From Candidatus Omnitrophota bacterium (GTDB taxonomy: Bacteria > Verrucomicrobiota > Verrucomicrobiia > Limisphaerales > UBA1319): a stretch of DNA of 34,181 nucleotides. The translations under genes were made by a program, and so were the position numbers. The first letter of the stretch is position 1, and the number at the start of each line of letters is the position of its first letter. The DNA lies in contig JAMCZD010000448.1 of NCBI GenBank assembly GCA_023473405.1, positions 1-34,181 of the forward strand, in the 5' to 3' direction. The notes under the pieces were generated by a model that made no database searches, had not been told where the DNA came from, and worked only from the letters and a program-made list of their open reading frames with translations. This document shows, in pieces, positions 14,275 to 33,478 of this stretch.

Positions 14275-17142
14275 ATGAAAATAGCGATCCTCATACTATT
14301 ATGCGGCCTGTTCGCGGCGCCATCCATCACAGCCGATGAAACGCTCGATGTCGTCAAGCCTCGGGTGCCGGACAAACTCAGCCGCGTGACGCTGAGCCAA
14401 CGGGAACTCGGCGGGGAAATCGACCGCCGCATCCAGAGCCTGATCTACAAAAACTACATGGTGATCGATCTGGACGACGGGTGGCTCAATCATTTTCTCC
14501 ACCGCACTGACCGCGGCGGCGCGAGCCACGTTTATTATGGCATTGGCAAGGTGTTCGACGCCGGCAGCCTTTTCACCGCCTATACGGGAGACCCGAAAGT
14601 CGCCGCACGCACCCAGTACATCATCGATGAACTGGTGAAATCCCGCGACGCCGACGGCTACATCGGATTCTGGAAGGTCGAGCCGGGAAACCTGCAAGAC
14701 TACATCAATTGGATTCTCCACGAGCAGGAATATATCAACCTTGCGTTCGTGCGGAATTACCGCTGCACGGGCAATCCCGACTCGTTGGCCGACGCGAAAA
14801 TCATGGGCGACTACATCCTCAAGACGTTTCCCACGCCCCAGAATCCATGCTACGACCCGGGCCTGATCTGCACGGCTGGTCTGCCCGAAGGGATGTTGGA
14901 ACTCTACCGCGTGACGGGCGACAAGCGTTACTTCGATTTCGCCGCCAACGTGCCGCACGGGAACAACAGAGGGGAGGTCAAACTTGCCTCCTTGCGGACA
15001 TGGGAGCAGGATTTCAGCCACCCCCCACGCCATGTGTACGTGATGCTCGCGCGCTGCTACGCGCAGACTGAATTGTACCGCCTGACGGGTGAAGACAATC
15101 TCCTGAACATGAGCCGGTTTATGCGAAACGAACTGCTCAAGAAGGGTGAGGGCGGCATGCTGGTCACCGGCTCGTGCTCCGACGGCGAGCAATTCTCCTA
15201 CAACCAGAACGGGCGCGGTGCCATCGGAGAATCGTGCGTTACAGCCTATGTGCTGCGCTGGATCGACAGCCTGATGCGGATGGAGGGGGATATGCGCTAC
15301 GGCGATCTGCTCGAGCGTACCATTTATAACGCCCTGTTCGCCGCCAACTCGCCCGACGGACGCCGAATCTGCTACTTCACCCCGTTTACCGGCCAGCGCC
15401 AGTTCCAGACAATCGATACGTTCTGCTGCAACGGGAATTATCGCCGAGCCGTGGCTGAATTGCCGCAGAAGGTGTATTACCGGACACCGGAGGGCGGAAT
15501 CGCGTTGAATCTGTTCACCCGTTCGAAGAAGGCCTTCGACGTGAAAAGCCAGACTGTCACAATTCTCCAGGAAACCGCCTACCCGAACGACGGCGACGTT
15601 AAGCTGACGTTTTCCACCCCGAGTCCCGTGGCGTTCCCCTTTCAGTTCCGCACACCGCGATGGTGCGAAACAATCACGCTGCGGGTGAACGACGAGGCGC
15701 CGGTGACGATCAACCCGCTGGGGCAGAAACTTGGGTGTTACGTGTTGAACCGGACATGGAAAGAGGGCGATGTGGTGAAGATTTCGATGCCTATGGAGTG
15801 GCGGTTCCTGCGCGGTCGGGCGGTCCAGGATGGCCATGTGGCGCTCTTGCGCGGCCCGGTGGTGTTTTCGGTTGGCAAAGCTCAAAACGCCGCACTGCTC
15901 GCCGAGTGCCCCGAACCGCGGAACCTCGTCATCGATCCGGCATCCATCGCCGAACCGGTGAGAGATGATTCGATTCGCCCGAACGGTCTGAAAGCCCTCG
16001 CCAAGGCTTGGCTGAATCCGGAATGCACCGGCGAAAAGGTGGATGTGATTCTCACAGAATTTATCGATCCCAGCAGTCAGGATGTGTATTTCCGCGTGCC
16101 GACAATTGAGGACACGGCGCCTGTGCGGTTGACAGACGACGAAATCGTGTCCTGGCCGAACGAGTTCGTTAATGCACACGTGCTGAAGGCGTTGTACGGG
16201 CCGAAGGCGGATGGCGATCTTAAAGCGATGTTCGAGGTCCGGGGCGATGTCGTCGCGGATTTGGCGGCCGATTACGTCAACCCGGGCGGCAAAACCGGTG
16301 TGAAAGCGGATTTTCCCGACGCTACGGGCGGGCGCTGGGCGTTTTACAACTGCAAGAACGGTGGGCTGTTGTCTACCGCTGCCGCCGGCGAGGTGAAGCC
16401 GCTGAACTCGCAATTCAAGGCGTTTGGCTCGCCGCTGGGTTACGCCTATGGGCTGGAAAACCAGGACGATGAACTCGGTTTCGTGTCGAACTACGCCCCC
16501 AGCGACCGGCAAGAGGACTCGTGGCGGAGGCATTACACCGAACAAATGTTCGACCAGGTGCTGTCCGCTCCCGAGCGGAAGAATTTCCTCTACACGCACC
16601 CGATTTCCGATACGGCGTGCTACAACGTTTTCCGCTGGACGCCCTCGTCCGACGTGCAAAAAAAGGACGTCACCCTGTGCGGTACGCTGTTCTCGGACCT
16701 GGGCAACGGCGTCCAAGTCCGCGTCATCCGCTGGAACGACGACACACGGCACGATGTCCTCGGCACCTTCAACACCAGCGATTTGACGGTCGGCAAATGC
16801 GGTACCGCTGAGTTTATCTTGCGATTGCCGTCCGGCAAGGTTGGCCAACACCTGGACTTCGTCCTGGACAACGCCGGCTCCCACAACGGCGATGCAACGG
16901 CCTTGAAAATCCGGGCATACACCAACGTGCGGACCGCTGCCCAAACCGACGTGACGGAAAAGGTCCAGGCGAAATACCACAACCGCCTCGTGACGTCCCT
17001 AGGTTCCTACTCCGACCTGTTCGGCGAGGGTGCACCCGGTGTGGAGAAGACGCTGAAGGTCAAGGTGGACTACTGGCTGGACGGTGTGGTGAAATACCTT
17101 GAATTCCCGCAGAACTCGGCCCTGGATTTGACCGAAGAATAG
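14275..17142 (+). CDS. GH127/GH146-like beta-L-arabinofuranosidase with C-terminal accessory domains
   Basis: GGAG then MKIAILILL signal peptide; DADGYIG, GEQF, ESC, LERTIYNAL, FCCNGN, TAYP, LLRGPVVF. Confidence 0.85.
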   Translation: MKIAILILLCGLFAAPSITADETLDVVKPRVPDKLSRVTLSQRELGGEIDRRIQSLIYKNYMVIDLDDGWLNHFLHRTDRGGASHVYYGIGKVFDAGSLFTAYTGDPKVAARTQYIIDELVKSRDADGYIGFWKVEPGNLQDYINWILHEQEYINLAFVRNYRCTGNPDSLADAKIMGDYILKTFPTPQNPCYDPGLICTAGLPEGMLELYRVTGDKRYFDFAANVPHGNNRGEVKLASLRTWEQDFSHPPRHVYVMLARCYAQTELYRLTGEDNLLNMSRFMRNELLKKGEGGMLVTGSCSDGEQFSYNQNGRGAIGESCVTAYVLRWIDSLMRMEGDMRYGDLLERTIYNALFAANSPDGRRICYFTPFTGQRQFQTIDTFCCNGNYRRAVAELPQKVYYRTPEGGIALNLFTRSKKAFDVKSQTVTILQETAYPNDGDVKLTFSTPSPVAFPFQFRTPRWCETITLRVNDEAPVTINPLGQKLGCYVLNRTWKEGDVVKISMPMEWRFLRGRAVQDGHVALLRGPVVFSVGKAQNAALLAECPEPRNLVIDPASIAEPVRDDSIRPNGLKALAKAWLNPECTGEKVDVILTEFIDPSSQDVYFRVPTIEDTAPVRLTDDEIVSWPNEFVNAHVLKALYGPKADGDLKAMFEVRGDVVADLAADYVNPGGKTGVKADFPDATGGRWAFYNCKNGGLLSTAAAGEVKPLNSQFKAFGSPLGYAYGLENQDDELGFVSNYAPSDRQEDSWRRHYTEQMFDQVLSAPERKNFLYTHPISDTACYNVFRWTPSSDVQKKDVTLCGTLFSDLGNGVQVRVIRWNDDTRHDVLGTFNTSDLTVGKCGTAEFILRLPSGKVGQHLDFVLDNAGSHNGDATALKIRAYTNVRTAAQTDVTEKVQAKYHNRLVTSLGSYSDLFGEGAPGVEKTLKVKVDYWLDGVVKYLEFPQNSALDLTEE

Positions 17143-19303: not shown

Positions 19304-20509
19304 CTACGGACTCCGCTCCGAGGCGATCGACCAGTAAATGGCGGCCTGAATTACTCCACTGGCGGGCAGGATGGGAATGTCATAGCCAGGAACAGTTACG
19401 CAGGCATCCGTCAAGGGCCATGCGGGATTGATGTAGAGTATGTTGTCGGCGGGTTCCGGGGGTTGGGCCGGTTGGACGTCAAAATAGACAAGGTTCACTT
19501 TCATGGCTTTGGCCTGGTCTACCAGCTTTTGAGGAGCGAACTGATAACCGACATACAGGACAAGTTGTGGTGGGTGGCCGACGTCGAGAAGGTCTTTGTC
19601 TTCCCAAGCGGGAACTGCGGCGAAACTGGCCAGGGCGATGGTGCGCGGGTCTTGAGCGTGACGAGGGAACATGTGGCCGGTGACCAGTGCCGTCACCGAG
19701 GTTGCCTGGTTCCACCATCGGGCTGCCTGGATGATTTTGGGCATTTGAGTGTTGCGTATATCTCCCAGCATCGATTCAATCCGGTCCAGGTAAGCCCGCC
19801 CTAAAACCCCGGCAGGGACGGGCTCGATAGTCAAATCCTCATGGAACTCTTTCCCCTGGTATTTCTTTCCCCGCTCGGGACCTCCAGGCAATCCGTAGCT
19901 TTGGTAGAAGACCGGCATCTTTCCCCGCCGCGTGCATGCCGCAGTAAATTCCCCCGTCCAAGTCCACAGGTCCACGACATTAGCGACGGTGTCGATAGGG
20001 AAACGGCTCTTGTAGAGTCCGGCTGCGGAGCTGAACTTGATTACCGTAGCACCTCCCCTTTGCCATTGATCGATGACCTCGAGGTCCTTGGGCCCCAGCA
20101 AACCTGGCACAGCATAGAGGATTACATCGTGCTTGGCGGGAATTCGCCGGCCCAAGGGAGCGATTGGCATCAAACCGCCGGCACGACCACACGCTTCGGC
20201 AAGGAAATCAGCCTGCCGACCCGCTACCCAGAGATTTCTTCCCGCCACGAATTCATTGGCAGCGTGATCGGAGGATTCTGCCAGTGTTGCCAGGTTCGAC
20301 CGGGTCAGCGCGATGGAGGTATGGAGGCGCGACAGGTAATTCTCCGCTTCTGCTCCTGGAGACTGTTGAACCAGGCATAACAGAACGGCGGCAAACAGGA
20401 GGGCGCCATACATCGGGCGGAGTTGATCACACACAGTCCGTCCCAGGTGCATCGCACGAAGTGAACGGCTTGACCGAAGGAGAAAGTCTCGTCTCATTCC
20501 AGGCTGCAA
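19304..20509 (-). CDS. Hypothetical, probably secreted protein with SIS-like domains
   Basis: Hydrophobic segment ALLFAAVLLCLV; AEACGRAGGLM and DACVTVPGYDIPILPASGVIQ resemble SIS-fold motifs. True start probably downstream (about 20412). Confidence 0.6.
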   Translation of the reverse strand: MQPGMRRDFLLRSSRSLRAMHLGRTVCDQLRPMYGALLFAAVLLCLVQQSPGAEAENYLSRLHTSIALTRSNLATLAESSDHAANEFVAGRNLWVAGRQADFLAEACGRAGGLMPIAPLGRRIPAKHDVILYAVPGLLGPKDLEVIDQWQRGGATVIKFSSAAGLYKSRFPIDTVANVVDLWTWTGEFTAACTRRGKMPVFYQSYGLPGGPERGKKYQGKEFHEDLTIEPVPAGVLGRAYLDRIESMLGDIRNTQMPKIIQAARWWNQATSVTALVTGHMFPRHAQDPRTIALASFAAVPAWEDKDLLDVGHPPQLVLYVGYQFAPQKLVDQAKAMKVNLVYFDVQPAQPPEPADNILYINPAWPLTDACVTVPGYDIPILPASGVIQAAIYWSIASERSP

Positions 20510-20581
20510 TCGTATTCTGTTTCTATGGCTGTTTCAACGATTTTGACGGCGCCTGCGGACCGCCATTATCTCCTTGATTCA

Positions 20582-20671
20582 AAACCAAAACTGAGTCAAT
20601 ATGTCTCAATGAAACCAAAAAATCTAGTTTGTTCAGGGTATCCCAGTTCAAGCCAATAAATACTGTTCGGC
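20582..20671 (+). mobile_element. Candidate integron attI site
   Basis: AGCCAAT-aaatact-GTTCGGC (20651-20671), inverted core boxes with 7-bp spacer; AT-rich; AAACCAAAA repeated at 20582 and 20612; ORF starts at 20685. Confidence 0.5.
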
Positions 20672-20684
20672 ATGAAATGACACA

Positions 20685-21662
20685 ATGAATGCAGCGGTCA
20701 TATCCACGCCGACGGATATGCGGCCATTCGTGGGCGGTCACGATCATGCTGTGCCACACTTGGTTTTTTTCAGGGAAGAATACGAGCCGACAATCCGCCA
20801 CCTGGTCGATGCGATCTTTCAGGACATGCAGTACATCGGTGCCGATGAGGCTGAACTCGTAAGCAGCTACCTCGACGGTATCACCTAACCCCTCCAGGAA
20901 CTCAAACGCTACGGAGTGTCGATCCTCGCCTTAAGCACGCGGGGGACGATGAAACTCGACAACGGTTCAGCTGTCCCGGACTGTATCAGGACGTACTTCT
21001 TCATTGTTCCGACACTTGGCTACTTCAGGGTCGAGGCCGATGGCAAGAAGTTCCATCATTTCGACGCCGGTTGCCGCGCGGCGATGTCTGACCTCTCCGA
21101 AGCCATGCGCAAGAAGACCGGCTTGAGCACGAAACTCGACGCTCAGTTGATTCGGGAGGAACACGAGAATGACGTCCCATGGTGCGAGCATTGCCGCCTG
21201 GATGAGATGATTTCGGTATCGGGGACCACCGTATCGGTCAAGCCGCCGACTCTCCGCGTCACATGCCGAGTCGTCGAACGCTCTATCGCAGACGCCGAAG
21301 TCCTTCTCAAGACAACTGGACCGCCCAGCGCGGTTGATCGAGTGCATACTGCCCTGCACGGATACCCGAAGACGGTTTGCGCTGACGCGCAGATCAGCGT
21401 TGGCAAGGACCCTGGCATCACGGAGTTGTTCAGCCTGATTCGGCAGTATCATCCGCGGCTCCAGAGCCTTGGGGAGCATCAGGAGACAGTGTTGAAGGTC
21501 CTTCGGGCGCTGTGCAAAGTGGTTGACGCCCTCAATCCGGCTCGCGATAGGGGAAGCATGGCACACCCAAACGAAGCGCTGTTGGATGCGCCAGAAGCGA
21601 GGTTGTTCATCAACGCGGCGAGGTCGCTGCTACACTATTTGGATGAGAAACTGTCCGGATGA
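20685..21662 (+). pseudogene. Cassette gene: unknown N-terminal domain plus abortive-infection (Abi_C-like) C-terminal domain, with in-frame stop
   Basis: ORFs 20685-20888 and 20916-21662 are in one frame, split by TAA 20886-20888; SAVDRVHTALHGY, ALNPARDRGSMAHPNEALL, INAARSLLHYL. Confidence 0.7.
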
Positions 21663-21676
21663 GGTTGAAACGAAAT

Positions 21677-21772
21677 GGCGAACAAGATCACTGGAGCGAA
21701 CGCGGGCGGGCGACGTCAGTTGCCAATGCGGACGCGCTGGGCAGCCCGCGTCGCTCAGTTCGATCGTTGGAC
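21677..21772 (+). mobile_element. attC site 1
   Basis: R'' GGCGAAC; L'' GAGCGAAC vs L' GTCGCTC with extra base; GCGGGC/GCCCGC stem; R' GTTGGAC. Confidence 0.8.
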
Positions 21773-21893
21773 CGTACACCGCACGTCCTGCGCAAGCAAG
21801 CTTGCTCCGGACGGATCGGCGCCGGTCAACAGCCGCCGTTGGACCAAGAGCTATCTCGACGTACGGCGGTGACAATGGTAACCTTTTGGCGTC

Positions 21894-22175
21894 ATGAAAA
21901 TTCTCGAATTAAGTCCGCGTCCGGGATTCCGGTTGTTTTTGCGGTTTGAGGATGGTGTTACGGGCGAGGTCGATTTATCCGATTTGGCGGGGAGAGGAGT
22001 ATTCTCTGCATGGCTGGAGTCGGGAGTTTTTGATCAGGCTCGCCCTACTGAGGCGGGGGCGGCGGAGTGGCCGGGAGAGATTGACCTCTGCCCTGATCTT
22101 CTTTACATGCGCTTGACCGGGAAATCTCCTGAGGAGGTGCTCCCCGCTCTTCGAAGGATTTCGGCCCATGCCTGA
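21894..22175 (+). CDS. DUF2442 protein (putative antitoxin)
   Basis: LFLRFEDGVTGEVDLSDL, GVF, WPGEIDLCPDLLY. Confidence 0.85.
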   Translation: MKILELSPRPGFRLFLRFEDGVTGEVDLSDLAGRGVFSAWLESGVFDQARPTEAGAAEWPGEIDLCPDLLYMRLTGKSPEEVLPALRRISAHA

Positions 22176-22428
22176 ACTTTCCCGGTTCTACGGCATTGTC
22201 ATTCATATGTACTATGGAGATCATCCTCCCCCGCATTTTCACGCAATTTACGCGGGGTGTAGGGCGACGATTGATATCGAGACGCTGGCATTCATCGATG
22301 GTCATTTACCGGCGCGTGCGCGTGGTCTGGTGATTGAGTGGGCAACATTGCATCAAGATGATCTACGTGAGGCATTCCGCAGAGCTTCGGCGCTGGAGAG
22401 GCCTGAAAACATAGCCCCTCTGGACTAG
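22168..22428 (+). CDS. DUF4160 protein (putative toxin)
   Basis: MPELSRFYGIVIHMYYGDHPPPHFHAIY, LVIEWATLHQDDL, IAPLD. Confidence 0.9.
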   Translation: MPELSRFYGIVIHMYYGDHPPPHFHAIYAGCRATIDIETLAFIDGHLPARARGLVIEWATLHQDDLREAFRRASALERPENIAPLD

Positions 22429-22451
22429 TAGGTTCAATCCAATATGAAGAG

Positions 22452-22520
22452 GTCCAACCAATCGTGTGAGCGAATGAGCCTCCGCTGCGCTCCGGCTCAT
22501 CGCTGCACTCAGCGTTCGAT
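22452..22520 (+). mobile_element. attC site 2
   Basis: R'' GTCCAAC is the exact complement of the GTTGGAC opening this cassette; AGCGAATGAGCC...GGCTCATCGCT stem; R' GTTCGAT. Confidence 0.85.
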
Positions 22521-22534
22521 GTGAGAGAAAGAAC

Positions 22535-22609
22535 ATGCCCCTCGACCACATCCACAGCGATGAGCAACAGCGCGTGACGCTCAAGGGTGAAGAGGTAACC
22601 TATGACGAG
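22535..22609 (+). pseudogene. 5' stub of a cassette gene
   Basis: ATG 14 bp after the attC2 core with purine-rich leader; MPLDHIHSDEQQRVTLKGEEVTYDE then runs into the IS91 remnant. Confidence 0.45.
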
Positions 22610-22805
22610 AGGCGGATCAGTTCCTCGGGTTCCAGGAATGCAACACGCCCAGCATCCCCAGTTGGGCGCCCAGACGCTGCGGATTGGCCGCTAGATCCTG
22701 GAGGGCCTGGGCACTGGCGGCAAACAAGGCGTCGTAGCCCAGTTGCGGGTGCGAGCGCATCCAACCGCGCAAGCCCTCCGGCACCGTAAAGGTCAGCAGG
22801 AAATA
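22610..22805 (-). mobile_element. IS91-family transposase remnant
   Basis: Minus frame YFLLTFTVPEGLRGWMRSHPQLGYDALFAASAQALQDLAANPQRLGAQLGMLGVLHSW; then LEPEELIR in another frame, resembling the distal LxxxEFIRR motif. Confidence 0.8.
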
Positions 22806-22892
22806 ACAAGCAGATGCATCGAATCCCGCGATGACGCTTCAGCATCATATCGGCAGCCAGTGGCGCGGGGTTGTTGATCTGGGACGTTGGCG
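22801..22892 (+). mobile_element. attC site 3 (degenerate)
   Basis: TAACAAGCAGATGCATCGAATCCCGCG...CGCGGGGTTGTTGATCTGGGAC-GTTGGCG; R'' abuts the IS91 remnant. Confidence 0.7.
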
Positions 22893-22937
22893 CGCCGTGT
22901 GCCGAGTGCAGGCAACGCACAAGCCAAAGGGCCGCGC

Positions 22938-22966
22938 TTGAACAATTCCCGGCAAAGGGATAGGCT
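22938..22966 (+). promoter_or_regulatory. Sigma70-type promoter of TA cassette, probably leaderless
   Basis: TTGAAC-17 bp-TAGGCT, 6 nt before ATG 22973, no SD. Confidence 0.55.
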
Positions 22967-22972
22967 TGACGC

Positions 22973-23194
22973 ATGAGAAGGGAATTTGCACCGATCTTCA
23001 AGCTGGGCCGGGCCGAGCGTCTGCAGCTTGTCGAGGACCTCTGGGACAGTATCGCCGAGGAGGACGCGCAGTTGCCCGTGCCGGAGTGGAAGCACGAGGA
23101 GTTAAGGCAGCGCAAGGAGCGATTTTCGCGGCATCCCTCATCAGGCAGGACCTGGGATCAGGTCAAACAGCGGGCACGGGCGCGACATGATTGA
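22973..23194 (+). CDS. Addiction-module antidote protein
   Basis: ERLQLVEDLWDSI, VPEWKHEELRQR, TWDQVK. Confidence 0.88.
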   Translation: MRREFAPIFKLGRAERLQLVEDLWDSIAEEDAQLPVPEWKHEELRQRKERFSRHPSSGRTWDQVKQRARARHD

Positions 23195-23495
23195 GCGCGT
23201 CGTTTACACACCGGAGGCTGAGCAGGAGGTCGCCGACGCCTACGGTTGGTACGAGGCCCGCGAACCGGGATTGGGCGAGGATTTCCTGCGCTGCATCGAG
23301 GCGTGCGTGCTCGCCATCCAACGACATCCCCAGCTCTATCCGCTCGCAGTGGACGAGTTCCGCCGAGCGCTTGTCCGGCGGTTCCCATTCGAGGTTTTTT
23401 ATGAGTCGGACGGAGATCGCATCATCGTTTATTCTGTCTTTCATTGCTCACAGGACCCGCAGAAGTGGCGTTCGCGACTTGGTCAGGCTGGGTGA
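23187..23495 (+). CDS. RelE/ParE-family toxin
   Basis: PEAEQEVADAYGWYEAREPGLGEDF, RRALVRRFPFEVFY, VFHCSQDPQKWRSR. Confidence 0.9.
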   Translation: MIERVVYTPEAEQEVADAYGWYEAREPGLGEDFLRCIEACVLAIQRHPQLYPLAVDEFRRALVRRFPFEVFYESDGDRIIVYSVFHCSQDPQKWRSRLGQAG

Positions 23496-23509
23496 CAAGG
23501 CGTCGAATG

Positions 23510-23720
23510 AAGGGATTGCGGATCGCCAGGATTCCCCGCTGTCCGGCGAAATGGGCATAGGCGTATGGCTCACTGCGGTAAGGGCCACCCAGTATCATCA
23601 GAGCGCGGGCCAGAATGGAGGCATTGTGTCGGGCCCACTGGATCATGCCGGCCAGGAACGTCCAATCCTTCGGCGGATTGGGGAATAGTCATGTTGCGCA
23701 TTCCGATGACTTCGGACACT
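23510..23720 (-). pseudogene. Internal fragment of a glycoside-hydrolase-like gene
   Basis: DWTFLAGMIQWARHNASILARALMILGGPYRSEPYAYAHFAGQRGILAIRNP; no complete gene. Boundaries approximate. Confidence 0.45.
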
Positions 23721-23766
23721 CATTCCAAAAATATTCGGACAGTTGCCGGAGCGGTGCTGGAAGCTC

Positions 23767-26529
23767 CTAATGGTTGATCCTTGTGTATCGCACCAGCAGG
23801 CTTCCCGGCGCGGTCTCCAGCGTGACGCGGAGCCGTGAGAGTTCCCGGCCGGACAACCGGCGTTTCTCCTTCACGTCATAGGTCTCGGCAAAGGTCACCT
23901 CGTAAGCGGCGTCGGGGTCCAGTCCCTTGAGAGCAATTTCGGATGCCAGGTAGGGACTGGCGGCCCGGCGGAACAACATCGCAAATCCTTGACCGAGGTC
24001 CGGCCGATCAAACTGCCAGCCGCACCAGTGCTTCTCGTCCAGGTCCATTTCGAGTAGCGGGTAGTAATCGCCCAGGTATAGTTGGCGGAGCGATTTGACT
24101 TCTTCACTGGCGCGCTTCATGAGACCAACCGGGAACTGCGGAGAGCGCGTGTCGAAGCAAACCGAGGTCCCAAAGCGGGCGACGCTGCGGACCATGTACG
24201 GCTCGGCGCCCCACATCAGGCACGAGGCATGCAGCGGCACATAGAGGCTCAGTCCAGCCAATTGAGGTTGTTTCGAGGTGAGGTTGCCGAAGTCTTCGCT
24301 GCACGTCCACGAACCGGCGGAGCGCATCAGCACTTCGAGGTCCGGGCCGGTGCCGCGCCAGTTGGCGTTGTCGATAATCAGTCCGGGATGCCTTCGGAGC
24401 AATTCGTCCCACATTGCATAGAGTCCCTCGACGTGGCGAATCTCAGTGATCCCCTGGCGGTCGGGCGGGTCATTATCGCGCCAATAAATAAAGGGTCGCA
24501 GGTTGCGGTCCTGGCGATAAACGTCGATGCCCCAGTCGTCGATACACTTCGAAAGCAGGTCGGTCATCCACTGGCGCGCCTCGGGATTTCCTAGATTGAA
24601 CAGGCGTCCGCCGTTTCCCACCAGGTGGAACAAATCCCCTGAGTTCCCCGCGTTAGGCGAACCGCCCTTATAAGAGAGCAGCCATTCCGGATGCTCGCGT
24701 GCAATCAAGGTGTTGGTGCCGACTACACGTTCGGGTTCGAACCAGACGATAAATTTCAAGCCCAGTTTGTGTGCGGCGTCACCCAGCGGACGCAGTCCGT
24801 GAGGGAAATGGTCTTTTCTGGGGAACCAGTTCCCGATCCCATTTTCCCATCCGCCTTCAAACCAACCCGCATCCAGCCAATATGCTTCCAAACCCATGGC
24901 CGGCATCTTGGCGATAGCGGCCAACTCGGTCTGCTCGGTGGTCTCGTTGCCGCCGTTGAGCAAGAACCACATCATCTGGGACATTAATGGCACGACCACC
25001 CGGCCGTTCACTCGCGGGACATAGTGGTCAACGAGCAGACGCCGCAGCAGGTTGTGTCCGCGCAAACGATCGGGGCCCCGCCAGTGCACCAGCAGGATTC
25101 GCGGCGTGCGGATCGATTCGCCGGGAAGGAGCTTTAGGTGGGTGATTTGCTGACCCGCCTGGAGAGCCAATTCACGGCCTCCGTTGCGTTGCGCGTCCAG
25201 TTCCCATTGCCCAGTCCAGCCGATGGCCCCCACCAAGCCGCCGCCTCGCCATTCCAGGTTAAAATAGGGCAGGAAATCCTGGGCGATCTTACGGTTGCCT
25301 GGCAGGGAAATCTTCTGCCCGGGAGCGAGAGTGGCGTCGACCTCCGCATAATCATCGGGGGTGCCGTTGCTGCCATTGGCGTAATGGAAGACAGCGGATT
25401 CGCGATTGCCGAGCCCGATCTCGAGATTCAGCACTTGCACATCCTGGAGAATCGGCGTGTTACGGTCGGATGTGTTTTTGAAGTGCAGCACCCATTCCAC
25501 AGCCGGGAAATCGCTGAACATCTTTGCCTGGCAGGCAACTTCGAGCCCCGTCTTGTCGTCCAGCCAGGTCAACGTGTGCCGCTCGATGCCGTTGGCGGGC
25601 GGCTCATGGCTTTCATGGCGTTTCCAGTTGCCGAGTAATTGTGAAGAAGGTTCATCGTCAAAGGTGAACGAAAAAGGAATGCCTCCCTCCAATCCGCGAT
25701 TCTCCCCCGACAGTATCGGAATCTCATCAAGCCAGAGTCGTGCCCCGTCCTGCGTGATGATAGCTGCGTCCGCCCAGTCACCGTGGTCCGAGCCGGGTCC
25801 ATCACCGGCATCGAACACCTGGAGGACAAAATCGCGAGCGCCTTTCAGTTCGAGGTGCAGCGGGATTGGGGGTTGGCCTTCGCGCATCACGCCCGATGTA
25901 TAGAGGTTGTTCCCGTCCGCCGTGACCTTGAAGACCACACTGCCCCGGCCACCGGAGGTGTCCATGTTCTCATCGACGCCGATCACGGCCTCAAAAGACT
26001 GGGCAGGTTGAGCCAGGTGGACCACGAGTTCACTGGTCGAATGGCTGCCCAGCCCGTGCGGGTAAGTCATTCCTCCCAACCGCAATGGCGTCTTTATAAC
26101 CGACTCGCGGACCCCAAGGTGGTAATCGCTGCGTCGAACCTCTGTCCATGGCCGGACCGGTTCGCTGGGCGGCCGATTTGTTACAAAGAGCCATTGCCCG
26201 ATCCATTGGCGCATTGCGCTCCGTTCATCCGGTGTTCCGCGCATTTGCAGAGCCGGTGACTCAGCCTGCGCTTGTCCTCCCCAGGAGAACAAATATCCAA
26301 TTGCAATCGTCAAGAGCCAGATCCGCTGGCAAAAGGGCACGCGGGGGTCTTCGCCGGTGGGTTCCGGTGACGTTCCGGCATCAGAACTGGACAGAACACC
26401 GGGCGATGCGCCCGGTTGACTCGCTGGAGGGGACTTCTGCGCTCCTTTGGTGTTGGCCTTGGTGAAGAGCTGTCGGGTTTCAGTTTTTGATTGCATATTC
26501 CTGTGGAAAGGCTGTGTTCCCGTGTTCAT
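23767..26529 (-). CDS. GH36 alpha-galactosidase-like protein with N-terminal NPCBM domain
   Basis: NPCBM: HGLGSHS, GSVVFKV, DHGDWADA; GH36: WLDAGWF, FPHGL, WFEPE, YRQD, IDN, GDYYPL. Start uncertain. Confidence 0.85.
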   Translation of the reverse strand: MNTGTQPFHRNMQSKTETRQLFTKANTKGAQKSPPASQPGASPGVLSSSDAGTSPEPTGEDPRVPFCQRIWLLTIAIGYLFSWGGQAQAESPALQMRGTPDERSAMRQWIGQWLFVTNRPPSEPVRPWTEVRRSDYHLGVRESVIKTPLRLGGMTYPHGLGSHSTSELVVHLAQPAQSFEAVIGVDENMDTSGGRGSVVFKVTADGNNLYTSGVMREGQPPIPLHLELKGARDFVLQVFDAGDGPGSDHGDWADAAIITQDGARLWLDEIPILSGENRGLEGGIPFSFTFDDEPSSQLLGNWKRHESHEPPANGIERHTLTWLDDKTGLEVACQAKMFSDFPAVEWVLHFKNTSDRNTPILQDVQVLNLEIGLGNRESAVFHYANGSNGTPDDYAEVDATLAPGQKISLPGNRKIAQDFLPYFNLEWRGGGLVGAIGWTGQWELDAQRNGGRELALQAGQQITHLKLLPGESIRTPRILLVHWRGPDRLRGHNLLRRLLVDHYVPRVNGRVVVPLMSQMMWFLLNGGNETTEQTELAAIAKMPAMGLEAYWLDAGWFEGGWENGIGNWFPRKDHFPHGLRPLGDAAHKLGLKFIVWFEPERVVGTNTLIAREHPEWLLSYKGGSPNAGNSGDLFHLVGNGGRLFNLGNPEARQWMTDLLSKCIDDWGIDVYRQDRNLRPFIYWRDNDPPDRQGITEIRHVEGLYAMWDELLRRHPGLIIDNANWRGTGPDLEVLMRSAGSWTCSEDFGNLTSKQPQLAGLSLYVPLHASCLMWGAEPYMVRSVARFGTSVCFDTRSPQFPVGLMKRASEEVKSLRQLYLGDYYPLLEMDLDEKHWCGWQFDRPDLGQGFAMLFRRAASPYLASEIALKGLDPDAAYEVTFAETYDVKEKRRLSGRELSRLRVTLETAPGSLLVRYTRINH

Positions 26530-33300: not shown

Positions 33301-33478
33301 AGGGATCAACCGCCGGATCGCTGAACACCCGTTCCACGCGCACCATAGACTGTCCCAGCGGTCTCGGCTGTCTGGACTGTCCCTGGGCGCCGCGATTTTT
33401 GTTGCCAATCGATCCGGCAACGGGGCCGGTCGACGGTGAGAAATCCGGCAATACGGCTTCCTTCCGAGCATCATTCAT
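30347..33478 (-). CDS. nrdJ: Vitamin B12-dependent class II ribonucleotide reductase
   Basis: FNSPVWFN, PQCSACFI, KTRRAAKM, NPCSE, CNLASLNL, APTGTI, ISKTVN, YRDGSK, TSCPD-like domain, C-terminal CPTCG...CLNCG. Start 33478 or further upstream. Confidence 0.96.
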   Translation of the reverse strand: MNDARKEAVLPDFSPSTGPVAGSIGNKNRGAQGQSRQPRPLGQSMVRVERVFSDPAVDPFKQVEWERRTAEITDDAKKVIFKQENVEVPKTWSLLATKVVVSKYFYGEQNTPERETSVRQLIYRVCRTIADWGVKDGYFSKDDGEIFCDELTWLCLNQYGSFNSPVWFNVGLFHQYGVGNSSAPGNWHFEAGKEVAERASSQYVHPQCSACFIQSVEDNMESIMRLAQSEAMLFKFGSGTGTDLSPIRSHKEKLSGGGRPSGPLSFLKVYDQVANVVKSGGKTRRAAKMNTLHDWHGDIEEFIEAKQKEEKKAWALIEQGYDGSYNGEAYGSVMYQNENLSVRVSDSFMEAALAGREWWTRAVTTGQQLEKKDARALLRKIAEGTYVCGDPGMQYDDTIQRWHTCKGTGPIHSTNPCSEYVFLNNTACNLASLNLMKFKDANGIFNLERFKAAVRIFITAQEIVVDNASYPTKDIAENSHHFRTLGLGYANLGSLIMSYGLPYDSDEARALAGAITAIMTGQAYEQSAAIAGVMGPFPGYRDSHCAGVEKPAAPNNVDSMHRVIKMHRDAVESIQPSAEFHYLKEEARRCWDRALEQGQNLGYRNAQVTVLAPTGTIAFMMDCDTTGIEPDIALAKYKLLAGGGMLKIVNRIVPEALARLHYTNQEVEAIVAHIEKYDTIEDVEEQGQTIRSGLKPEHLPVFDCAFRPFRGRRSISYMAHLKMMAAAQPFISGAISKTVNLPKDCSAEEIMDAYVQAWKMGLKCVAIYRDGSKRSQPLSTQKAAEGTRTAEHLAARVNELEAIVPKLKSQVDKPIRHRLPETRQAITHKFDIAGHEGYLTVGLFQDGQPGELFITMAKEGSTIGGLMDCVATLTSMALQYGVPLETLVRKFAHQRFEPSGFTKNPEIRQASSIIDYIFRWMACQFIPGYRDATSPNSHQPDLPIPGLLEEIKKKVNRPVPDLARAEEAELASNATSPDEATAVDEKSAPTPQPNPADRPIRNLSDAIAHFQEDAPACPTCGHMTVRNGACFKCLNCGESLGCS

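Follow-up and report, generated by a model that had tools for sequence, protein, structure and literature searches.

Positions 20575–23500 of the 34,181-nt stretch of DNA analyzed here (the window) are very probably the integrase-proximal end of a Verrucomicrobiota chromosomal integron that has lost its integrase gene, intI, and is eroding, and that survives as an attC cluster without integron-integrases (CALIN) still carrying its attI site. The window is contig C311 of a metagenome-assembled genome (MAG; 547 contigs, 75% complete, 58% G+C) labeled G000, which we compared with a set of 101 related genomes that carry other G numbers. Two firm attC sites and a weaker one lie within 1.2 kb, and no integrase was found on the contig, in keeping with the definition of a CALIN in the available text of PMC4889954 as at least two attC sites with no neighboring integron integrase. 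An intI adjoining attI, as in a complete integron, was not found in the window. An attI-retaining array that lost intI had been proposed in an earlier note on this DNA, and it stands as the best reading: the same attC family lies beside intI in relatives, and the attI is homologous to theirs. Coordinates are collected in Table 1.

The attI site

An alignment of eight copies of the motif ..AGTTnnAGACAATAAATACTGTTnGGC (alignment A6) has 16 invariant columns and about 45 conserved bases. In the same MAG, the 18 bases at 20654–20671 recur at C420:326–343, where the fourth base of the box is the sole difference and an attC lies 2 kb downstream of the motif. In three relatives the motif adjoins, and diverges from, intI: G006:C7 (motif 925–941; intI 1502–2428), G007:C39 (motif 33383–33399; intI fragments 34108–34871) and G012:C144 (motif 16699–16715; intI 15396–16082). 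The R'' box of the first attC complements the attI GTT box at 7/7 positions in G007, G012 and G005 and at 6/7 in the window, where the attI box and the R'' of attC1 form the ends of cassette 1. The G005 attI has the same ...AAATTGTTCGGC end and the box GTTCGGC; its upstream part is different and contains two AGGAAAGTTTTCCT repeats. Exact and near-exact copies of the motif are concentrated in the window's own family; across the order, matches with up to 2 mismatches are mostly noise, reversed-pattern controls giving similar counts. These comparisons support the view that 20625–20671 is homologous to the intI-adjacent attI of relatives, i.e., that it is a real attI. The candidate attI of the earlier note is borne out by the copies beside intI in G006, G007 and G012, with its core and crossover point corrected to those of Table 1.

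About 90 nt upstream lies a CTTGA(A/T)T box, which keeps the same distance from the attI core in the window, C420, G007, G002, G005:C277 and G006 (A6) and is a possible cassette promoter (Pc), although it was not among the calls of a scan for consensus promoters.

Published origins of CALIN, in the available texts, are intI loss, rearrangement and off-target insertion (PMC4889954; PMC8618304; for off-target insertion also 10.1101/2022.09.11.507474). By the last of these, a distant IntI would have inserted cassettes at a secondary, non-att site that never was an integron platform. Such an origin is very improbable here, because the left boundary is not a bare GTT and about 45 nt (about 100 nt with the TTGA box) are homologous to the intI-adjacent attI of relatives. 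Since attI is still present, we favor an origin by loss of the integrase side over off-target insertion; the locus gives direct evidence for one of the published origins and is a clean, checkable example of a CALIN arising by loss of the integrase side of its platform.

The attC sites and their family

We built three covariance models of the sites: R1 from attC1 and a look-alike on contig C463, with R-box and L-box pairs read from both; R2 from five sites; and R3 from 27 sites. The C463 copy of attC1 had been revealed by a loose L-box regular expression (71 matches, mostly spurious). MAFFT misaligned attC2, and model alignments were used for this reason. A training sequence in all three models, attC1 scored 106 bits with R1, 103.5 with R2 and 90.2 with R3, and it is 89% identical to a copy on C71. 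Because R1 was built only from attC1 and the C463 copy, its match to attC2 (22.5 bits, E = 6.3e-4, filter-off search of 44,934 bases) is an independent test; the later models R2 and R3 gave 49–52 bits. With R3, from whose 27 sites it was excluded, attC3 scored 27.9 bits (E = 2.2e-5 over 74,470 bases), and it keeps the full attC geometry, including the bulged C and A. Thus, the three attC-like hairpins that the earlier note had seen are all in place, all share the orientation of the genes and are all matched by covariance models, family-specific ones, as that note had suggested should be tried.

The attC consensus is RYYYAAC for R'' and GTTRRRY for R'. AAC and GTT are exact in all three sites of the window, and the outer four positions match the R/Y consensus partly. 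In the standard integron mechanism two bulged bottom-strand bases set the choice of strand, G and T being the canonical extrahelical bases; those of the window are C and T (attC1), C and T (attC2) and G and T (attC3).

The same family is found elsewhere in the MAG and in its relatives. With R1, C71 (67.5 bits) and C420 (37.8 bits) each yielded another copy, and the genome-wide search for more attC proposed earlier placed the repeats on at least six MAG contigs. R2, at E ≤ 0.01, matched 63 of the 101 related genomes, and intI exceeded the TIGR02249 cut-off in 38 of the 101. In a genome of the same family, G005, contig C24 carries intI on the minus strand (446.8 bits) and then 24 co-oriented plus-strand attC matches over 16 kb; the first of these reached 96.8 bits with the model derived from the genome of the window. 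Neighborhoods of intI and attC were also found in G012:C144, G014:C66, G006:C97, G007:C39, G017:C37 and G069:C183. Co-oriented arrays beside intI thus occur in relatives, and the window itself is without intI.

Aligned, the 27 sites (61–127 nt) share a geometry of R box, spacer of 5–6, L box with a bulge, and variable loop. In this alignment 95.1% of pair cells were paired, compared with 74.7% in shuffles and 25–39% when the partner was slid, and 13 of the 16 pairs, namely all 13 L-stem pairs, change on both sides. The AAC/GTT of the R box is invariant save in one site (27/27, 27/27 and 26/27). Two single-base bulges lie on the R''/L'' arm; on the top strand the first is C in 17/27 and G in 8/27 sites (bottom strand G or C) and the second is A in 25/27 (bottom strand T). 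The paired R and L boxes and extrahelical bases for which the earlier note had asked are therefore present, with compensatory L-stem pairs across the 27 sites.

Hairpins found on at least six MAG contigs, and in other contexts in four metagenome runs, could be non-integron palindromic repeats (repetitive extragenic palindromes or elements like miniature inverted-repeat transposable elements) that resemble attC, and an Rfam scan of 20000–24000 at E ≤ 1 gave 0 matches, although Rfam is not expected to contain attC. We find this hardly credible, since the arrays start beside intI, are co-oriented and separate single ORFs (open reading frames), the ends of neighbors are complementary in 18/20 cases (see below), and the hairpins have the R-box, spacer, bulged L-box and loop geometry of attC. 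The contigs of the four runs share only the attC1 core (~21680–21760) and have unrelated flanks, as expected because one attC type serves many cassettes.

Three further observations concern attC sites. The 97-nt type of attC1 is ~90% identical across different families of the order, which is unusually conserved for attC; sites of this type scored 84–97 bits in G005, G093, G050, G033, G029, G083 and G089, and the loci include L065:7038–7134. At C463:3842–4994 (L009, minus strand), the ORF that lies upstream of the C463 attC stays open across the entire site, and a 113-aa (amino acid) membrane-like ORF starts 4 nt past the R' box. Lastly, 21823–21845 contains a second GTTGGAC (21838–21844) with GGTCAAC 8 nt upstream, an R''/R'-like pair without a stem (R3, 6.4 bits), which may be the remnant of a collapsed attC at the head of cassette 2 or may be due to chance.

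Cassette ends

A cassette that was once circular is recognized by its initial hexamer (TTRRRY), which should be complementary to the R'' box of the attC that it carries. As the earlier note had claimed, the ends of cassette 2 are perfectly complementary (R' of attC1, GTTGGAC; R'' of attC2, GTCCAAC; 7/7). In the G005 array, 18/20 adjacent cassettes matched at 7/7, 2/20 at 6/7 and 0/20 below 6/7. Non-adjacent pairs of the same array, taken as a control, matched at 7/7 in 31/400 cases; the match of cassette 2 is for that reason supportive and not decisive alone.

Weighing the evidence

Several observations weigh against the reading of the locus as an integron end that lost intI. All of the attC models are family-specific and none is the attC model of IntegronFinder, and R2 and R3 were both trained on attC1 and attC2 among other sites. 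The match of attC3 to R1 was noise (6.8 bits, E = 9.7), and one U:U and two G:U pairs mark the L' box of this site as degenerate. Folding the bottom strand of the exact sites gave z −1.44 for attC2 (30/300 shuffles as good) and −0.47 for attC3 (89/300), compared with −3.05 for attC1 (1/300); with padded windows z was −0.61, −0.42 and −1.28, respectively. As a test of attC, folding energy singles out only attC1, attC2 and attC3 being unremarkable. The 6/7 match between attI and attC1 was reached or exceeded by 158/400 non-adjacent pairs, and the start of cassette 3 (TTCGAT) matches the R'' of attC3 (AAATAAC) at only 4/7. The loss of intI could not be dated by synteny: for the protein encoded on the left flank there was no homologue at E ≤ 1e-20 in 40 relatives, and neither part of the Abi gene of cassette 1 had one in 100 relatives, leaving the history of the site unreadable from them. 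Contigs of the metagenome run break inside the IS91 repeat of cassette 3, no perfect contig bridges 22669–22733, and depth is 11.3 to the left of the repeat and ~6 to the right (22841–23900, run X1).

The left part of the array is well supported by assembly: one contig of the run covers 20300–22668 with 0 differences and so confirms that the left flank, attI, cassettes 1 and 2 and attC2 follow one another. With 94% of the words of the region, that run probably comes from the source sample and hence does not amount to independent data. Given the contig breaks and the fall in depth, the link of attC3 and the ParE genes to cassettes 1 and 2 is less certain and rests on the MAG assembly; the change in depth may reflect strain heterogeneity or an uncertain join. 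In the extreme, the right part (attC3, the antitoxin and ParE genes and the glycosidase fragment) would be foreign to the array, in a contig made chimeric through a 190-nt IS91 repeat common to C331. Run contigs ending in the repeat, the change in depth, and the same order on C331 (IS91 remnant, then an antitoxin-like ORF) speak for such a chimera, which we judge improbable: the repeat copies differ at ~7% of positions, so longer k-mers or read pairs can separate them, and depth is a noisy measure in short contigs. On both readings attC3 and the toxin-antitoxin (TA) cassette would still lie within a cassette array. In run X2, of another study, 151-nt pieces are 99–100% identical to the antitoxin and ParE genes; this run holds only 5% of the sampled words, an overlap too small for any statement on habitat or on transfer of the cassette.

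The integrase

Searches with TIGR02249 and PF00589 found no tyrosine recombinase on the 34-kb contig C311, in agreement with the earlier note; their 10 and 7 matches, respectively, all lie on other contigs of the MAG. C414 alone in the MAG carries an integron-type integrase (212 bits, model positions 4–194 of 315). The genome-wide search for intI that had been recommended thus did find an integron integrase, but a truncated one without its catalytic half, and intact IntI was not found in the 75%-complete assembly. In the vicinity of the C414 gene there was no attI motif (up to 3 mismatches) and no attC (R2, R3). Upstream of it lies a 257-aa ORF, which we take to resemble an IS200/Y1-type transposase.

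Orphan attI-headed arrays in the family

The most interesting point of the locus is the recurrence of orphan attI-headed arrays in its family. The MAG has two orphan attI copies, one in the window and one on C420. G006 has one copy beside an intact intI (C7) and two orphans (C3 and C103), and the C3 orphan is followed by three attC matches of 49.6, 30.3 and 18.8 bits. By its markers, the one-contig genome G002 is 96% complete; it contains the attI motif three times and no intI, the best TIGR02249 match in the whole contig being 82 bits. Two of its three attI copies are followed by four and five ~95-nt CTAAC...GTTAG repeats, a second attC type, and some R'' boxes in these repeats are mutated from AAC to ACC.

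An array of this sort might be a working satellite platform, with attI and Pc kept on purpose and IntI acting in trans from elsewhere in the genome, from the unassembled 25% or from a mobile element. The attI core and the upstream TTGA box are conserved though intI is gone, G006 pairs its intI-linked attI with two orphans, one of which (C3) heads three attC, the MAG is only 75% complete, and half of all CALIN are in IntI-encoding genomes according to the available text of PMC4889954. We nevertheless consider a satellite platform unlikely. The sole intI in the assembly is without its catalytic half; the locus is decayed (nonsense codon, IS remnant, last attC missing, a cassette matching at 4/7); G002 has its three attI-headed loci without any intI and with mutated R'' boxes; and no excision joints were seen in the contigs, which cannot show rare variants.

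The orphan arrays fit repeated loss of intI with attI kept, attI modules served in trans being less likely. It is a tentative idea, doubtful but not far-fetched, that in this family attI and the cassette promoter form a multi-copy dispersible module, by which several arrays per genome would be served in trans by one or an incoming IntI and would persist after intI is lost. If this is true, the term CALIN would hide a class of integrase-less, attI-competent platforms. IntegronFinder annotates attI only for classes 1–3, by exact match (PMC4889954, available text), and for this reason retention of attI in CALIN generally goes unreported in that text. A literature search on orphan attI returned nothing pertinent and mostly noise, which is no proof of the matter being unpublished.

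Cassettes, cargo and decay

Table 1. Features of the window and of related loci (positions refer to the window unless a contig is named).
Feature	Position	Strand	Description
Left flanking gene	19304–20509	-	401-aa ORF, unrelated to integrase; no Pfam match at E ≤ 0.01
Possible cassette promoter (Pc-like)	20575–20603	+	TTGATT, 17 nt, CAATAT; proposed
attI core	20625–20671	+	Ends in R box GTTCGGC (20665–20671); crossover G/TT between 20665 and 20666
Cassette 1	20666–21766	+	1101 bp; Abi_C/AbiJ-like gene 20685–21662, in-frame TAA 20886–20888
attC1	21677–21773	+	97 nt; R'' GGCGAAC, R' GTTGGAC (21766–21772)
Cassette 2	21767–22514	+	748 bp; DUF2442 (DhiA-like antitoxin) 21894–22175, DUF4160 (DhiT-like toxin) 22168–22428
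attC2	22452–22521	+	70 nt; R'' GTCCAAC (22452–22458), R' GTTCGAT
Cassette 3	22515–22886	+	372 bp, chimeric: 27 codons of ORF from 22535, IS91 remnant, attC3
IS91-family transposase remnant	22613–22808	-	~65 codons, model positions 86–145 of 356
attC3	22801–22893	+	93 nt, degenerate; R'' AAATAAC, R' GTTGGCG (22886–22892)
Cassette 4, truncated	22887–23500	+	Antitoxin 22973–23194, ParE-family toxin 23187–23495; no attC after
Glycoside-hydrolase gene fragment	23512–23667	-	Marks right breakpoint; tblastn 36.5% identity over 52 aa to C-terminal part of 705-aa ORF on C154
Right flanking gene	23767–26529	-	NPCBM/melibiase-type glycosidase
Truncated intI	C414:23299–24365 (L001:1489–2553)	-	N-terminal half only + 150-aa leader; stops before catalytic half
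G002 attI loci	G002:C1:4157000–4163000, 2222500–2231000, 3473000–3481500 (L097, L103, L104)		

The gene of cassette 1 matches Pfam Abi_C (PF14355, 2.3e-10) and, weakly, PADLOC AbiJ (1.1e-4). Its closest homologues are 316–345 aa long; the 67-aa ORF at 20685–20885 aligns to their residues 1–67. Codon 68, which encodes Glu in homologues of 327 aa, is TAA in the window and is in frame with 20916–21662. ORFs 20685–20888 and 20916–21662 are thus one broken gene. The domain is present and the reading frame is interrupted; the gene has probably lost its activity, barring a product shortened at the N terminus.

Cassette 2 carries a predicted TA pair with Pfam matches to DUF2442 (2.4e-8) and DUF4160 (6.3e-18); the NCBIfam scores, 75 bits for DhiT (cut-off 100) and 22 bits for DhiA (cut-off 200), are both below the equivalog cut-offs. 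The remnant in cassette 3 matches NCBIfam NF033538 (6.1e-18) at 65 bits, and it is because it is a fragment that this lies below the cut-off of 125. Lying on the opposite strand, this transposase remnant contradicts the earlier statement that every recognizable cargo gene is Abi- or TA-like. Cassette 4 matches Unstab_antitox (PF09720, 1.4e-15), ParE_toxin (PF05016, 1.9e-10) and TIGR02574 (52.8 bits, cut-off 31.9) and appears to be a type II TA module of the ParE family, with the antitoxin first and an overlap of 8 nt (23187–23194). Within 22894–23900 no R3 match exceeded 6.1 bits, so no attC follows this cassette. To judge from the TA cassettes of Vibrio superintegrons, both TA modules probably work by addiction and so protect the region from deletion.

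We suggest the following history for the locus. IntI would have inserted the cassettes singly at attI, using as its substrate the bottom strand of each attC in folded form. The loss of intI and its intergenic side, by replacement or deletion, would have left a breakpoint between about 20414/20509 and 20575, and the distal end would have been cut off inside the ParE cassette, beside the glycosidase pseudogene fragment. An IS91-family element would have entered cassette 3 and been mostly deleted, and the Abi gene would have gained its nonsense codon. Cassettes could move at present only with IntI supplied in trans.

Comparison with known systems

The element belongs to an already known kind, CALIN, and adds no new mechanism. 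In common with published CALIN, the array has 2–3 attC at spacings under 1 kb and cassettes of one orientation, and intI is absent from the 20 kb on its left and the 10 kb on its right; what sets it apart is a recognizable attI, and possibly Pc, still in place. With the sedentary chromosomal integron of G005:C24 it shares the attC family, the R-box rule and small ORFan cassettes, and in both the attI ends in GTTCGGC. In G005, however, intI is intact and there are at least 24 cassettes, against 3–4 cassettes and no intI in the window, and the upstream parts of the two attI differ. The available text of PMC8618304 already records integrons for Verrucomicrobiota and names TA and phage-related functions as those reported most often for cassettes; defense cassettes of sedentary integrons are treated in the available text of 10.1101/2024.07.02.601686. 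The two-gene TA cassettes and the abortive-infection-type gene of the window resemble the TA cassettes of Vibrio superintegrons and the defense cassettes of sedentary integrons, but the Abi gene is broken, and the TA modules (DhiAT-like, and ParE with a TIGR02574 antitoxin) are predicted from sequence alone. DhiTA of Dickeya dadantii is an experimentally shown type II TA of a DUF4160 toxin and a DUF2442 antitoxin (PMC8198452, available text). The pair in cassette 2 has the same two families in overlapping genes; it differs in that the antitoxin comes first in the window and the toxin first in Dickeya, and in that the antitoxin is 93 aa against a model of 160 positions, with scores below the NCBIfam equivalog cut-offs.

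With its defense cargo broken, and TA cassettes in integrons being well known, the locus is of modest interest in these respects. The attC model, which matched 63/101 related genomes, and the family attI motif are reusable tools for an under-studied phylum.

Genomic setting and related loci

Chromosomal genes on C311 include a class II ribonucleotide reductase, a prolyl oligopeptidase, GH127, a sulfatase and an efflux system; the ribonucleotide reductase is 70–81% identical to Verrucomicrobiia/Limisphaerales enzymes. The array forms a 3.2-kb block of small plus-strand genes between two minus-strand flanking genes. The 50-aa stretch that immediately follows the stop codon of ParE is, in our reading, what is left of a glycosidase gene, the glycoside-hydrolase label of the C154 ORF being itself a prediction.

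The IS91 remnant is 93% identical over 192 nt to C331:1400–1591, and C331 has further pieces of the same gene. Its own IS91 remnant (C331:1054–1694, minus strand) is followed on the other strand by an antitoxin/ParE-like pair, as in the window, and the homology between the two remnants ends at the R'' box of attC3. Downstream of the ParE-like gene of C331 is an ORF pair (C331:2256–2781; L062), presumably similar to BrnT/BrnA toxin-antitoxin, and then a weak attC at 2750–2812 (22.5 bits, R3); C331 seems to be another TA-rich cassette locus.

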